Virus record (IMG/VR): IMGVR_UViG_3300022752_000014 | Strand: one strand, 5' to 3' | Source: a virus | Taxonomy: Duplodnaviria; Caudoviricetes | DNA: 64,000 nt | Shown here: one piece after another, positions 18,873 through 23,707 of the stretch | Layout of the letters: the number at the start of each line of letters is the position of its first letter | Numbering within the stretch: position 1 is the stretch's first letter | The notes under the pieces: model-generated | What the model was told of the DNA's origin: nothing | Database searches by the model: none | The model's input: only the letters and a program-made list of their open reading frames with translations | Translations under genes and position numbers: made by a program

Positions 18873-19168
18873 GTTTCTTTAGCCACTCCAGGTCCAAGAT
18901 AAGTTTCACTAAACTGGAAAGGAGCACCTTGATTTACAATTGTATAATTCGCTCCTGGAGTAGGAGTTCCAGGAATATTGATATTTGTACCTGTTACTGT
19001 ATAAGACGTTCCAGTGGTATACTCTATTTGTTTAATGGTTTCTATGATTTCAGTATGAGATTTGGTCTCTGCTGTAATCGTCCCCCTTGTAAAATTAGGC
19101 ACAACCGTATTCGCTAAGGCGGGGGAGGAAAACCCTAGCAGCATCAGTGCCGCTAGGGTCCTTCTCAT
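18809..19168 (-). CDS. Hypothetical secreted protein
   Basis: Signal peptide ending SPALA; Thr-rich body. Confidence 0.7.
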   Translation of the reverse strand: MRRTLAALMLLGFSSPALANTVVPNFTRGTITAETKSHTEIIETIKQIEYTTGTSYTVTGTNINIPGTPTPGANYTIVNQGAPFQFSETYLGPGVAKETWIERTTTTDSTTNSISVFTQ

Positions 19169-19641
19169 TTGAATACGCTCAATTCAATACTACGTTGTGC
19201 TGTAGCAGTGGTTCCAGGACCACCAGCAGTTACAGTAGCAACACCGGTGGGGGATAATGTACCCGCAAGAGTTCCTTTATCACCTGCTAACTGAGTAGTA
19301 GAGTTCCCATAAACATGGGGAGAAGCAATTGCTCCAGCAGAGACAGTTTCAGTGGTGACAACTGTATCTGCAGCATTTTTTGTTTCAGAAAAACTAAATG
19401 CTTGTCCAGCAGTATTGATGTCATAAGTTCCAGTTGTAGCAACCCCACCAAAAGTATTTCCGTTGGCTGTACCAACTTTAATGTTTGAACCAGAAACGGA
19501 ATAAGATGCTCCTATTCTTTCTGTTTGAATCGCTGCGCCCTGAACGCCTAATTGGATAGAGTCAGTGATTTTTGATGTAATTTCAGCAGCACTTACAGGA
19601 GTGATGAAGAATAACGAAAAGGCTAGTAGAAGTCTTTTCAT
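19165..19641 (-). CDS. Hypothetical secreted protein
   Basis: Signal peptide MKRLLLAFSLFFITPVSA; Thr/Gly/Ala-rich; late-type TAAATA on the minus strand at 19666-19671. Confidence 0.7.
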   Translation of the reverse strand: MKRLLLAFSLFFITPVSAAEITSKITDSIQLGVQGAAIQTERIGASYSVSGSNIKVGTANGNTFGGVATTGTYDINTAGQAFSFSETKNAADTVVTTETVSAGAIASPHVYGNSTTQLAGDKGTLAGTLSPTGVATVTAGGPGTTATAQRSIELSVFK

Positions 19642-19694
19642 TTTTCTTGTGATGAACACTGCAAGTATTTAGCAGAGTGTCCCCATTTTGGGAC

Positions 19695-19728
19695 TTGACG
19701 CTTTCGGCAAACCGTAGTATGATAAATA
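19695..19728 (+). promoter_or_regulatory. Overlapping early (sigma70) and late promoters for psbA
   Basis: TTGACG, 17 bp, TATGAT (19718-19723), overlapped by ATAAATA (19722-19728). Confidence 0.75.
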
Positions 19729-19774
19729 GGTAAACAAATGTTACGGATTTCTCATAATTCTTAACATTGTCGAA

Positions 19775-19880
19775 CACCCGTTAACCGAGACCTATGGGTG
19801 TATAAATCACGTCTCTCATATCCCCGCTGAGGGTGCGGGGAGCATAGTAACTCCACCATTCCCCTGATGGTCTTACTAAC
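19775..19880 (+). ncRNA. Structured psbA 5' leader, PhotoRC-II-like RNA motif
   Basis: Stems CACCC/GGGTG, GAGAC/GTCTC, CCCCGC/GCGGGG and ACCAT/ATGGT upstream of psbA. The family name is from recall of known cyanophage psbA leader motifs, not from a search. Confidence 0.55.
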
Positions 19881-19893
19881 TGTTTAAAAAAAA

Positions 19894-20973
19894 ATGACTG
19901 CTTCAATCGCTCAACAACGACAATCGAATACTTGGGAACAATTCTGCAGCTGGATCACCAGCACCGATAACCGCCTTTATGTGGGTTGGTTCGGCGTTCT
20001 GATGATTCCTTGCCTGCTTGCTGCAACAATCTGCTTCATCGTGGCGTTCATCGCCGCTCCCCCTGTGGACATCGATGGTATCCGTGAACCCGTTGCTGGT
20101 TCACTCATGTACGGAAACAACATCATCTCTGGTGCTGTGATTCCTTCGTCCAATGCTATTGGACTGCACTTTTACCCCATCTGGGAAGCTGCTTCCCTAG
20201 ATGAGTGGCTTTACAACGGTGGACCTTTCCAACTGGTAGTCTTCCACTTCCTCATCGGCATCTATGCTTATATGGGTCGTGAGTGGGAACTTTCCTACCG
20301 TCTTGGTATGCGTCCTTGGATTTGTGTTGCCTACAGCGCACCTGTTGCTGCTGCTTCTGCAGTGTTTCTTGTGTATCCTTTTGGTCAGGGTTCTTTCTCT
20401 GACGCGATGCCTCTGGGTATCTCTGGTACGTTCAACTATATGCTTGTGTTCCAGGCAGAGCACAACATCCTGATGCACCCCTTCCATATGCTTGGAGTTG
20501 CTGGTGTGTTCGGTGGTTCTCTGTTCAGTGCTATGCACGGTTCTCTGGTTACTTCTTCTCTGGTTCGTGAAACCACTGAGAACGAGTCCCAGAACTATGG
20601 TTACAAGTTCGGTCAAGAAGAAGAGACCTATAACATCGTTGCTGCACACGGTTATTTCGGACGCCTTATTTTCCAATATGCTTCCTTTAATAACTCCCGT
20701 TCGCTGCACTTCTTCCTTGCTGCGTGGCCTGTTGTAGGTATCTGGTTCACTGCTCTTGGTGTTAGCACTATGGCTTTCAACCTCAACGGCTTCAACTTCA
20801 ACCAGTCAGTTATCGACTCACAAGGTCGTGTATTGAACACCTGGGCTGATGTTCTGAACCGTGCTGGTCTTGGCCTAGAGGTGATGCATGAGCGCAACGC
20901 CCATAACTTCCCTCTGGACTTGGCAGCTGCAGAAGCGACTCCAGTTGCTCTTACTGCTCCAAGTATTGGATGA
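19894..20973 (+). CDS. psbA: Photosystem II D1 protein (intronless; E130-type GREWEL)
   Basis: Full-length D1: [27 protein letters not shown] and [13 protein letters not shown]. Confidence 0.99.
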
Positions 20974-21322
20974 GTTTAGATAAAATCTGAACATTATCAC
21001 CTACTAATCCGAGAGCAGTGTTGCAATTATTACACAACACTCCTCGGATTTTTTCTGCAGTATGACAGTGGTCAATACATTTCTTTTCTGTAATGTCTCT
21101 GCCACATACTTGACAACTATCGTGCTTCATTAATTCTTGATACTCTGTCTCAGAAAGATTAAACTTTCTTCTCATGTATTCATGGGGTTTGTAATATTTT
21201 TTTCTTACTGATGTAGAACATTCTTTACATTTTGACTGGTGAGATATTTTTCCAGTTTTTAAAGTTCTCTTATGGAAATGATTAAAAGAAAGAGTTCTAT
21301 TACATACACTGCAGAGTTTCAT
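20951..21322 (-). CDS. Free-standing endonuclease VII-family (F-CphI-like) homing endonuclease
   Basis: N-terminal CxxC...CxxC Zn finger and C-terminal CQVC...IDHCH...[14 protein letters not shown]; late-type TAAATA on the minus strand at 21348-21353. Confidence 0.85.
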
Positions 21323-21362
21323 ATTTGTAATGCGTATTTTCCATACATATTTAGGAGGATAA

Positions 21363-22424
21363 ATGGTTTCATCTACACTTTCACAACCAATTCAACAAAG
21401 GGGGTGGTTTGATGTCCTGGATGACTGGGTTAAACGTGATCGCTTCATATTTGTGGGTTGGTCTGGACTATTACTTTTTCCCACTGCTTATCTTGCCCTT
21501 GGTGGCTGGCTTACTGGCACAACGTTTGTTACAAGCTGGTACACCCACGGGTTGGCGTCTAGTTATCTTGAAGGGGCTAATTTCCTTACGGCTGCTGTGT
21601 CAACGCCTGCAGATTCTATGGGTCATTCTCTTCTTCTACTTTGGGGTCCTGAGGCTCAAGGGGATTTCGTCAGGTGGTTCCAACTTGGGGGACTCTGGCC
21701 TTTTGTGGCACTCCATGGGGCTTTCAGCCTGATTGGATTCATGCTTCGCCAGTTTGAGATTGCCCGTCTAGTAGGTATTCGTCCGTACAATGCGATTGCT
21801 TTTTCAGGTCCTATCGCTGTATTTGTATCTGTGTTCCTGATGTATCCACTGGGTCAATCTAGTTGGTTCTTTGCTCCCTCTTTTGGTGTCGCAGCAATCT
21901 TCAGGTTCCTTCTGTTCCTTCAGGGTTTCCACAACTGGACCCTCAACCCCTTTCATATGATGGGAGTTGCTGGTATACTAGGAGGAGCACTGCTCTGTGC
22001 CATTCACGGAGCTACTGTAGAGAATACACTTTATGAAGATGGTGATGCTTCAAACACTTTCAAGGGTTTTGAACCTACACAGGAAGAAGAAACGTATTCA
22101 ATGGTTACTGCAAACCGATTCTGGTCGCAGATTTTTGGAATTGCTTTTTCCAATAAGCGTTGGTTACATTTTTTCATGCTTTTTGTTCCCGTTATGGGTC
22201 TCTGGACTAGTTCTATTGGGATTATTGGTTTGGCTCTCAATCTTAGGGCCTATGATTTTGTAAGTCAGGAAATTCGTGCTGCTGAGGATCCGGAATTTGA
22301 GACCTTCTACACGAAAAATATACTGCTCAACGAGGGACTACGTGCTTGGATGGCTCCAGTAGATCAGATTCACGAGAATTTTGTCTTTCCAGATGAAGTT
22401 CTTCCTCGTGGAAATGCCCTCTAA
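21363..22424 (+). CDS. psbD: Photosystem II D2 protein
   Basis: [24 protein letters not shown] and VLPRGNAL; AGGAGG SD. Confidence 0.99.
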
Positions 22425-22435
22425 TATTATTTTTA

Positions 22436-22468
22436 TATAAATAGTATTGCGAGAGGCAATGCTACTAT
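22436..22468 (+). promoter_or_regulatory. Late promoter plus hairpin over the endonuclease RBS and start codon
   Basis: TATAAATA at 22436-22443; TAGTATTGC-GAGAG-GCAATGCTA stem at 22442-22464; ATG at 22467. Confidence 0.65.
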
Positions 22469-23033
22469 GGTTTGGAACAAAGGATTAAAAAATGACCCCC
22501 GATTAAAAGGGGGTCGTCCAAAATCAAGTCTCTCATATGTCGGTAAGACTTATGGGAGACTTACTATTTTGGAACAATATAGTCACAAAAAAAGTATAAG
22601 ATTTAAATGTCGTTGTGAGTGTGGAAATATTACTGATGTTCGCAAAGATAATTTAATAACAAAAGCAGATACTGTTTCTTGTGGGTGTAGATTGGAAGAA
22701 CTTCACCAAGAAAGAAGAGAAAAAGGTATTGATGAAGTTTCTGCTATGTGGTCTAGGGCAAAATATAGAGCAAGACAAAAGGGAATGGAGTTTACAATAG
22801 AACAAAAAGATATTATAATCCCAGATGCTTGTCCTTTACTTGGAATACCATTAGTTTTTCATAGGGGTAAAGGAAGTCAGCAGGGAAACTCTCCATCGTT
22901 AGATCGCATTGATTCTTCCAAAGGATACATAAAAGGTAATGTATGGGTTATCAGTAATAGAGCAAACACCCTCAAGAACGATGCCTCCCTACACGAACTT
23001 GAACTCCTGGTAGAAAACTTAAAGAAACTATGA
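22467..23033 (+). CDS. Free-standing HNH-type (His-Me finger) homing endonuclease
   Basis: GKTYGRLTI...CRCECGN...SCGC N-domain and CPLLGIPL...SLDRIDSSKGYIKGNVWVISNRAN nuclease domain. Confidence 0.8.
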   Translation: MVWNKGLKNDPRLKGGRPKSSLSYVGKTYGRLTILEQYSHKKSIRFKCRCECGNITDVRKDNLITKADTVSCGCRLEELHQERREKGIDEVSAMWSRAKYRARQKGMEFTIEQKDIIIPDACPLLGIPLVFHRGKGSQQGNSPSLDRIDSSKGYIKGNVWVISNRANTLKNDASLHELELLVENLKKL

Positions 23034-23158
23034 TATCTTCCACTACACCTTATAAACTCGCAGAGATCATTCGGGACACTTGGCCCAACCTTTACAGAAA
23101 ACCCCAAGTGCCCTATAATAAAGAAAAAGAACAGGATGATGAACAAGTACAACAGTGA
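23030..23158 (+). CDS. Small hypothetical protein (42 aa, MISSTTPYKLAEIIRDTWPNLYR...), not in the ORF track
   Basis: ATGA overlap with the endonuclease stop; fills the gap to the next gene. Confidence 0.55.
   Translation: MISSTTPYKLAEIIRDTWPNLYRKPQVPYNKEKEQDDEQVQQ
23091..23119 (+). promoter_or_regulatory. Sigma70-type promoter
   Basis: TTTACA, 17 bp, TATAAT. Confidence 0.6.
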
Positions 23159-23450
23159 AGACTATTTCACAGTAAGAGAAAGAAGGACTCATAAAAAAAT
23201 TTGTGATTGTGGTAATCTTGAAGATGCAAAAATGGTGATGAGTCTGGACATACCAAATCGTGAAGTTGTAAAAAACAAATCACTGATGAGTCCAGTGATT
23301 GATGTTGAGATACCCAAGGCACTACCAACAAATGAGATTGTGGTGAACATGGATGGTGGAGTTGGTGGTTCTTGGGAAGTCCGTGAACCAGAAAAACTTC
23401 CTCAAATCAAACTTCCAGAAGGACAAGGAATTCCAGTTAACGCTAAATAA
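23136..23450 (+). CDS. Hypothetical cyanophage protein
   Basis: ORF track; AGGA SD. Confidence 0.7.
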   Translation: MMNKYNSEDYFTVRERRTHKKICDCGNLEDAKMVMSLDIPNREVVKNKSLMSPVIDVEIPKALPTNEIVVNMDGGVGGSWEVREPEKLPQIKLPEGQGIPVNAK

Positions 23451-23470
23451 ATTTCAGGTTTATAAAAGAT

Positions 23471-23707
23471 ATGAAATTCACAATTTATTCAAAAGACGGT
23501 TGCCCATATTGCACTAAAGTGGAACAGGTGCTACAATTAGCAGAGTTGCAGCATGTTGTCTACAAATTGAATACAGATTTTACTCGTGAAGAGTTTTACG
23601 CAGAATTTGGAGAGGGTTCCACTTTCCCTCAAGTTATTGTTGATGATAAACATATTGGTGGATGCACTGATACTGTTCAATACCTAAGGGAGCAAAATCT
23701 AGTTTAA
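23471..23707 (+). CDS. nrdC: Glutaredoxin
   Basis: YSKDGCPYC, TFPQV and IGGCTD. Confidence 0.93.
   Translation: MKFTIYSKDGCPYCTKVEQVLQLAELQHVVYKLNTDFTREEFYAEFGEGSTFPQVIVDDKHIGGCTDTVQYLREQNLV

Follow-up and report, generated by a model that had tools for sequence, protein, structure and literature searches.

How does a nuclease gene that lies backwards against the end of psbA, the gene of photosystem protein D1, spare the very psbA copy to which it is attached, and where do psbA transcripts end when such a gene takes the place of the terminator? Both questions are raised by a locus of the virus record IMGVR_UViG_3300022752_000014 in IMG/VR, of which a stretch of 64,000 nucleotides (nt) of a T4-like freshwater cyanophage genome, assembled from lake water, was analyzed. 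This whole stretch is referred to as the window, all coordinates are given in it unless a contig is named, and L-numbers are labels for related viral contigs. The locus consists of an intronless psbA of 359 codons (19894..20973, + strand; taken from the list of open reading frames (ORFs) and matching Pfam Photo_RC with an E-value of 4e-90), a nuclease gene of the EndoVII-motif DHHRN family that encodes 123 amino acids (20951..21322, - strand; ORF list and Pfam PF02945), and psbD, which encodes D2 and forms the right flank of the insertion (21363..22424, + strand; ORF list). The comparisons presented below make it reasonably probable that the nuclease gene is a homing cassette, the product of which would cut psbA copies that lack the cassette, the adjoining psbA of which would be protected by an altered site, and the coding sequence of which would hold a replacement terminator for psbA.

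In the mechanism proposed here, the cassette would be a unit of ~400 base pairs (bp), composed of a late-promoter box, a conserved leader and the 123-residue F-CphI-like nuclease, inserted in reverse orientation between psbA and psbD. In the late phase of a mixed infection, the nuclease would cut cassette-free psbA around codons 328-339, and repair of the break would copy the cassette and the psbA tail into the recipient. The element's own copy would be spared through a differing site, namely Met328Leu (codon CTA) and a run of rare synonymous codons, and sister lineages would be protected by M331S, by M331V with F339Y, by M328I, or by a group I intron between R334 and N335. The backwards insertion would have removed the psbA terminator, a replacement hairpin and U-run being supplied opposite nuclease codons 91-106. 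Transcripts of psbA would then stop within the nuclease gene; they would be complementary to the final ~105 nt of its mRNA, and this complementarity may damp nuclease expression.

The arrangement itself can be read directly from the sequence. The psbA stop codon lies at 20971-20973 (+ strand), and the nuclease stop is the reverse complement of 20951-20953, 23 nt within psbA, which yields a tail-to-tail overlap of 23 nt shared by both strands (20951..20973). Within the overlap, psbA is read as A-P-S-I-G-stop and the nuclease as I-Q-Y-L-E-Q-stop. The original prediction had described a nuclease gene antisense to psbA that overlaps its 3' end by 23 nt, and this description was confirmed. It had also held that psbA contains no intron, which is borne out by the single open frame of the gene and by an Rfam search of 19000-23500 in which no group I intron was found. 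During D1 processing, the C-terminal extension of the protein is removed after Ala344; given that the overlap sits in this removed extension, mature D1 should pay nothing for it.

The encoded protein matches Pfam Endonuclease_7 (PF02945) with an E-value of 8e-16, PHROG 2633 with an E-value of 4e-31, and, over the full length and with 32% identity, F-CphI of S-PM2 with an E-value of 2e-18; F-CphI is reportedly the enzyme treated by Zeng and colleagues in 2009. Its catalytic core residues C70, C73, D84, H85, H87, R93, C97, C100 and N101 align with C84, C87, D101, H102, H104, R110, C114, C117 and N118 of F-CphI, and its N-terminal part bears a zinc ribbon (C4/C7/C32/C35). The zinc and DHHRN residues do not vary among 35 aligned psbA-linked homologues, and C84, D101, H102, H104, R110 and N118 of F-CphI were shown or argued to be essential by Fang et al. 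2018 (PMC6083498). The CX2-4C...D-H-x-H...R...CX2C-N motif of the DHHRN family is present at residues 70-101 of 123, i.e., C-terminally, behind the zinc ribbon. The predicted kinship of an EndoVII-type nuclease with F-CphI is upheld by these results, all of the DHHRN and zinc residues being in place.

The structural comparison agrees with this assignment. The AlphaFold2 model, with a predicted local distance difference test score (pLDDT) of 91.6, presents a beta-beta-alpha-metal fold made of strands 81-86 and 91-97 followed by helix 98-106. Foldseek returned a probability of 1.00 for both Hpy99I and T4 EndoVII. The best fold match is Hpy99I, which is covered over both modules (E-value of 6.5e-6), whereas T4 EndoVII matches the catalytic core only, and a sequence search of the PDB ranks the two in the same order. 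The same paper by Fang et al. distinguishes an "endonuclease clade" from a "resolvase clade", the C-terminal motif being the mark of the former; given this motif position and the full-length match to Hpy99I, the nuclease is assigned to the endonuclease clade. Among EndoVII-motif enzymes, sequence and fold comparisons place it in the F-CphI/Hpy99I branch.

It could be argued that the gene is not selfish at all, and that it encodes the Holliday-junction resolvase of the phage (an equivalent of gp49/EndoVII) or some other housekeeping nuclease. The Pfam family is named "Recombination endonuclease VII", many homologue entries in the databases are annotated as resolvases, and the gene is under purifying selection. 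This explanation is nevertheless considered very improbable. With 123 residues, the protein has no counterpart to the C-terminal part of the 157-residue T4 enzyme, the match to which is limited to nuclease residues 66-107 against T4 residues 19-68, while the best full-length match in both sequence and fold is to a sequence-specific enzyme, Hpy99I, and the motif has the C-terminal position that marks the endonuclease clade. Moreover, the gene is missing from the closest relatives, decayed copies of it are found in L012-L014, and homologues occupy the same single site in both orientations. The ratio of nonsynonymous to synonymous substitution rates (dN/dS) within the nuclease clade, 0.09-0.22, indicates that the protein is maintained. 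This clade is well separated on the tree, with a support of 91 in the Shimodaira-Hasegawa-like approximate likelihood ratio test (SH-aLRT), and contains both backwards and same-strand members. The nearest relative is an uncharacterised gene of S-SKS1, located on the psbA strand, with 56% identity; no isolate homologue of higher identity was found in the phage collection.

That the gene behaves as a homing element is suggested by its distribution. The position between the two conserved genes is occupied in the window and in L002-L010, and it is empty in the closest psbA relatives in IMG/VR (L015, L016, L018, L021 and L022), among which L015 has a psbA product with 99% amino-acid identity to that of the window. 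In these empty-site relatives, ~60 nt separate the psbA stop from psbD, and this spacer contains a GC-rich hairpin with a T-run. The nucleases of L002-L004 are 95-99% identical to that of the window. When the window was compared with these three contigs through sliding identity and mismatch lists, a tract of 493 nt (20854..21346) presented 96-100% identity per 60-nt block, against 65-93% in the flanks; the last mismatch on the psbA side is at 20853, and those on the psbD side resume at 21347. The shared tract hence reaches ~100 nt into psbA and ends at the cassette edge toward psbD. Beyond both ends of the tract, similarity is to the empty-site contig L016, from which the window differs at 5 positions in 20413-20720 and to which it is 95-98% identical in 21439-21650. 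Near-identity limited to 20854-21346 amid differing flanks is the pattern expected of a homing cassette with a copied psbA tail. Mobility of the cassette together with ~100 nt of co-converted psbA tail, into differing psbA/psbD backgrounds, is therefore supported by what is essentially one donor/recipient comparison, that of the window with L002-L004.

Loss of the element can be followed as well. In L012-L014, the cassette has decayed to the equivalent of the last 35 nuclease codons, ~100 nt past the psbA stop, and the psbA site is canonical (Met328/Met331). EndoVII-type cassettes at psbA fall into at least five clades, in both orientations, with and without introns. Among them, one same-strand EndoVII nuclease after psbA (L052:3665-4057, +) has a C-terminus that copies the psbA C-terminal extension, and its end looks like an in-frame cassette insertion into a duplicated psbA tail.

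The site that the nuclease would recognize was sought in the 3' end of psbA, where a candidate target and immunity patch comprising codons 324-337 (20863..20906, + strand) was delimited from codon rarity, the F-CphI substrate and the S-PM2 intron site. Codons 327-337 (20872-20904) read GGC CTA GAG GTG ATG CAT GAG CGC AAC GCC CAT, as quoted in the original prediction, with the CTA codon of Leu328 at 20875-20877. Several of these codons are rare in the rest of psbA: GGC accounts for 3 of 31 Gly codons, CTA for 1 of 31 Leu, CAT (used twice in the patch) for 1 of 8 His, CGC for 2 of 11 Arg, and GCC for 2 of 38 Ala. Of 348 sliding 11-codon stretches of the gene, none scores lower in relative codon usage, so that the cluster of infrequent codons that had been pointed out ranks first of 348 in rarity. 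The remark that GLEV stands in place of the usual GMEV also proved correct: residue 328, Leu in the window, is M in 55, F in 24 and L in 14 of 94 related phage alleles. Divergence from the nearest nuclease-free relative extends more widely than the patch, from ~20660 to the psbA end.

The patch coincides with the site known from the characterized relative. The 60-bp substrate of F-CphI, derived from S-BM4, encodes G325-A344 (PMC6083498, Table S3), and the intron of S-PM2 psbA lies between R334 (CGT) and N335 (AAT), equivalent to the junction of positions 20895 and 20896 of the window. The substrate oligonucleotide and the S-PM2 exon junction stand in here for the exact cut positions; with both within the marked region, the earlier statement that F-CphI targets this part of psbA holds.

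The alleles found beside related nucleases carry most of the argument for self-protection. Sister nucleases adjoin either introns between R334 and N335 or amino-acid changes at most 7 codons away. Group I introns at exactly this junction are present in L009, the nuclease of which is backwards, has the same overlap and is 76% identical to that of the window, and in L011; other members of the clade adjoin alleles with M328L, M328I, M331I, M331S, or M331V together with F339Y. Considering only contigs fetched by the nuclease itself, the site is altered in 16 of 18 (M328L/I, M331S/V, F339Y or a group I intron), in comparison with a baseline of 4 of 52 nuclease-free relatives (Fisher's test, 2.6e-10, calculated on rows that are not phylogenetically independent) and with none of 10 relatives that have an EndoVII gene from another clade. 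A first tally, in which all 21 of 21 sites were altered, was rejected because some of the loci had been fetched by patterns that require Leu/Phe328 or Ile/Val331. Pattern scans for the residues themselves placed an EndoVII gene beside 12 of 32 Leu328 alleles and 0 of ~58 Phe328 alleles, and directly downstream of psbA in 12 of the 30 evaluable among 33 viral contigs with Ile/Val331; these counts, too, lack phylogenetic independence.

The weight of these comparisons would lie in the variety of the alterations, all of which fall within 12 codons around a proven homing site. They offer hints that the nuclease may cleave a cassette-free allele site-specifically, and self-immunity of the window allele by recoding, which the original prediction had proposed, is plausible in their light.

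Several observations weigh against this interpretation. Intact backwards nucleases of the family are found in L251 and L259 beside canonical Met328/Met331 sites, and at least 20 viral contigs have Leu328 but no nuclease. The tract dense in single-nucleotide polymorphisms that had been anticipated from an alignment of psbA alleles did not appear: codons 327-337 rank 167 of 334 in synonymous diversity among 91 alleles, i.e., they form no population-wide synonymous hot spot. In addition, co-conversion of the psbA tail with the cassette allows linked variants to hitch-hike even if they protect nothing, and the link between nuclease and altered sites could partly be caused in this way.

These same observations would be accounted for if the target were the empty site itself (psbA end, terminator and psbD start), the insertion alone granting immunity and the patch being a neutral passenger. 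The cassettes beside canonical sites, the natural occurrence of Leu328 in nuclease-free contigs and the unraised synonymous diversity would all be expected in that case, the cassette did replace ~60 nt that included the native terminator hairpin, and disruption of the site by insertion is the usual, well-established protection of intron- and intein-borne homing enzymes. However, the psbA-psbD spacer is poorly conserved among empty-site relatives, which would make it a poor target, and the intron site within psbA is where F-CphI, the characterized relative, cuts. This exact junction is interrupted by group I introns beside some family members, five kinds of alteration are clustered in codons 328-339 beside the family, and the shared tract enters psbA by ~100 nt yet reaches no further than the cassette edge toward psbD. 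An empty-site target is thus regarded as unlikely, and a target within psbA, with protection by an altered site, is the reading retained.

A further observation concerns alleles that may have acquired resistance without the cassette. The exact 33-nt patch occurs in four IMG/VR viral contigs, namely L002-L004, with the nuclease, and L187, without it; it is absent from the metagenome contig collection of the Joint Genome Institute (JGI). L187 (5536-5700) has an empty site, with psbA followed by the native terminator and psbD, and its psbA is 86% identical to that of the window. The two share a 44-nt island of identity (20863-20906), on both sides of which mismatches occur at nearly every third position. 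The island fits a short conversion tract that repaired a break and left a resistant, nuclease-free allele, yet it is suggestive only: it is the third-longest identical run in that pair, and long identical runs are common in mosaic psbA.

The second question, that of the psbA transcript end, arises from the arrangement of terminators. All empty sites and same-strand cassettes have an ordinary hairpin and T-run terminator directly after psbA. In the window, RNA folding places a small hairpin directly after the psbA stop (20974..20992, + strand), of which a position-equivalent hairpin is kept in related antisense cassettes, followed by a terminator-like element (21006..21056, + strand) within nuclease codons K91-L106. 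The latter is formed by a hairpin at 21006-21050, which spans nuclease residues R93, C97, C100 and N101, and a U-run at 21049-21054. The 83 nt after the psbA stop fold at -25.6 kcal/mol (z-score of -6.7), and the hairpin alone, 33 nt past the stop and followed by UUUUUU, folds at -18.5 kcal/mol (z-score of -6.0). The stem-loop and U-run that characterize an intrinsic terminator are accordingly both present on the psbA strand. We infer that the backwards cassette displaced the psbA terminator and that a replacement is supplied from within the nuclease coding sequence.

The stem could instead be a by-product of coding, or an element of the nuclease mRNA or DNA, with no role in ending psbA transcripts. 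It covers the most conserved codons of the protein, its loop has 11 nt, and a scan for consensus terminators did not flag it; the covariation is thin as well, with one compensatory pair (an A-U to G-C change between L247 and L175/L236) among few distinct sequences. Contigs assembled from metatranscriptomes (3 libraries of 2 studies) also extend over the nuclease region, and two of them, X15 (20909-21109) and X17 (20938-21088), cross 21056. These contigs are unstranded, have a depth of 2.5-5 with 2-3 mismatches, may derive from DNA carry-over and cannot show transcript ends; they were not used as support.

These alternatives to a psbA terminator are nonetheless unlikely in view of the relatives. 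The hairpin is present in every backwards member of the family, at -17 to -20 kcal/mol, whereas same-strand members, which encode nearly the same residues, reach -6 to -13 kcal/mol and have no T-run; at the corresponding place, same-strand members have Asn-Lys (AAT AAG) and backwards members Glu-Lys (GAA AAA). This contrast between orientations appears in two separate subclades of the nuclease tree. When the 20 codons concerned in the window were recoded synonymously at random 5000 times, only 4-13 versions folded as well as the observed sequence. The remnants in L012-L014 retain the psbA tail and the hairpin with its U-run after losing the rest of the gene, and a 2-nt deletion perfects their stem (-36.9 kcal/mol over a 110-nt stretch). 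Every other arrangement has its ordinary terminator after psbA, as noted above. Within the nuclease gene, the synonymous rate (dS) falls from the N-terminal to the C-terminal half.

An embedded psbA terminator hence remains the preferred interpretation of the hairpin, and it affects what may be expected of antisense transcription. The original prediction had psbA read-through running antisense to the nuclease. This is retained, as a prediction, for the last ~105 nt of the nuclease mRNA, to which the hairpin and U-run inside the ORF would mainly confine the overlap; for the whole gene, the terminator-like hairpin at 21006-21056 speaks against it, and psbA read-through is probably limited. In two contigs of another EndoVII clade, L239 and L241, a nuclease gene likewise runs backwards over the end of psbA, the adjoining alleles being F328/V331/Y339. 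The equivalent place in these two contigs lacks a hairpin with a U-run, which indicates that the embedded terminator is a trait of the window's family and not of all backwards cassettes.

On the opposite strand, the nuclease gene seems to carry its own start signal. The gene is preceded by a conserved leader of 25 nt and, ahead of it, by CTAAATA (21348-21354), a box that resembles a late promoter (together 21323..21354, - strand); the box ends 25 nt ahead of the nuclease ATG and overlaps the psbD Shine-Dalgarno sequence (21353-21358, + strand) by 2 nt. The 32 nt before the ATG are conserved in all backwards relatives (L002-L010), whatever gene lies upstream, in the form CTAAATA-N25-ATG in the window's subclade and with TATAAATA as the box in L007-L010. 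Box and leader recur in the same-strand relatives L231 and L011, and all other psbA-linked cassettes have TATAAATA or CTAAATA in the equivalent position. Of the CTAAATA copies in the window, 8 of 12 sit 21-45 nt before a gene start, as do all 3 copies of TATAAATA. A sigma-70 scan upstream of the nuclease detected no promoter. The late promoter that had been attributed to the gene is therefore substantiated as a sequence motif, being a conserved box and leader enriched before gene starts.

In comparison with known systems, the element is closest to F-CphI, which is likewise a free-standing EndoVII-motif nuclease encoded directly after psbA and before psbD. Both have two modules, an N-terminal CxxC...CxxC and a C-terminal CxxC-DHxH-R-CxxCN, and a TATAAATA-type box in front, and the cleavage and intron site of F-CphI falls within the patch described here. 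However, F-CphI lies on the psbA strand with an ordinary terminator between the two genes, and a group I intron shields the psbA allele that adjoins it, whereas the gene in the window is backwards, overlaps an intronless psbA by 23 nt and contains the terminator-like hairpin inside its ORF, and its allele is probably protected by sequence differences, among them an amino-acid change. The cooperation of F-CphI with a group I intron that protects its own psbA allele has been termed "collaborative homing" (PMC6083498). An intron in the target gene, which this term implies, is lacking in the window psbA and present in L009, L011 and S-PM2. The psbA of L011 contains two group I introns, at 964-1176 and 1497-1737 of that contig (Rfam scores of 56.7 and 85.4 bits), one of them at the S-PM2 site, and is followed by a same-strand nuclease 59% identical to that of the window.

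The intronless homing of T4 SegF and SegG, reported by Belle et al. 2002 and Liu et al. 2003 (cited in PMC6083498), offers a second parallel. There too, conserved genes flank a free-standing nuclease gene that is optional, and the nuclease cuts the neighboring conserved gene in genomes that lack it, co-converting flanking markers; the 493-nt tract fits such flanking co-conversion. SegF and SegG are, in contrast, GIY-YIG proteins, and the element of the window is known from its sequence alone. CfrI of S-PM2, reported by Millard et al. 2010 (summarized in PMC2984593), is a separate antisense RNA of ~225 nt opposite the psbA 3' end and a homing gene. As in CfrI, the antisense pairing predicted here would link the psbA 3' end with an adjacent homing-endonuclease gene, but in the window the two mRNAs themselves would be convergent and complementary over ~105 nt. 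The similarity to Hpy99I (PDB 3FC3) extends over all 123 residues, including both zinc modules and the beta-beta-alpha-metal core; Hpy99I is, however, a bacterial restriction enzyme paired with a methylase, is 26% identical, and has a partner of a kind not found near the nuclease of the window. F-CphI, its psbA target, intron protection, CfrI and the intronless homing of T4 Seg enzymes are already published. As for a backwards nuclease that overlaps psbA and has an embedded terminator, no description was found in the searchable literature, in a search that was not exhaustive.

The surroundings of the locus contain further elements of the psbA-psbD region. A sigma-70-like promoter ahead of psbA was detected by promoter scan at 19695-19723, and the psbA leader contains a PhotoRC-II RNA motif (19762..19855, + strand; Rfam RF01717, 82.1 bits, E-value of 7e-14), which also precedes psbA in contig L009. 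If psbA transcripts end at ~21055, psbD requires a promoter of its own; one candidate is a weak sigma-70-like match, TTGATA-17-TAAACT (9 of 12 positions), at 21137-21165 (+), on the psbD strand and within the nuclease ORF. A second free-standing nuclease gene, HNH-like and encoding 188 amino acids, is located 3' of psbD (22467..23033, + strand; PHROG 3322 "endonuclease", E-value of 1.4e-36). Its start is preceded by TATAAATA at a distance of 23 nt, and cyanophage S-SKS1 has a 50% identical homologue in the same position. With the EndoVII-type gene and the HNH-like gene each following one member, the psbA-psbD pair is bracketed by two homing-type genes.

Taken jointly, an arms race between EndoVII nucleases and psbA over the DNA that encodes the manganese (Mn) cluster of D1, together with a backwards element that encodes the psbA terminator in its own catalytic-core codons, is put forward tentatively, as a proposal short of probable. 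Codons 328-339 include those of the Mn-cluster residues H332, E333 and H337. Given that Met codons have no synonyms, escape from cutting would, in an arms race, force an amino-acid change or the gain of an intron. If this holds, M328L/I, M331I/V/S, F339Y or intron gain would arise right next to these residues, and a selfish gene would shape the sequence of a photosystem protein around the metal ligands of D1. The alleles found, i.e., canonical, M328L, M331S/V/I, F339Y and intron-bearing, form a natural series of ready substrates for mapping recognition by this nuclease family, EndoVII-motif homing nucleases being little studied.

The embedded terminator, if real, would be a case of compact dual coding, with a 45-nt stretch serving both as the catalytic core of a nuclease and as the opposite-strand terminator of a highly expressed gene. 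A psbA terminator in the antisense strand of the cassette would also make a residue of the cassette hard to lose after the nuclease has decayed, as in L012-L014. Finally, psbA is the best-known host-derived gene of cyanophages, and its mosaicism is usually ascribed to general recombination. If the proposed account is true, part of the mosaicism at the 3' end of psbA would be driven by diverse EndoVII-type homing cassettes.

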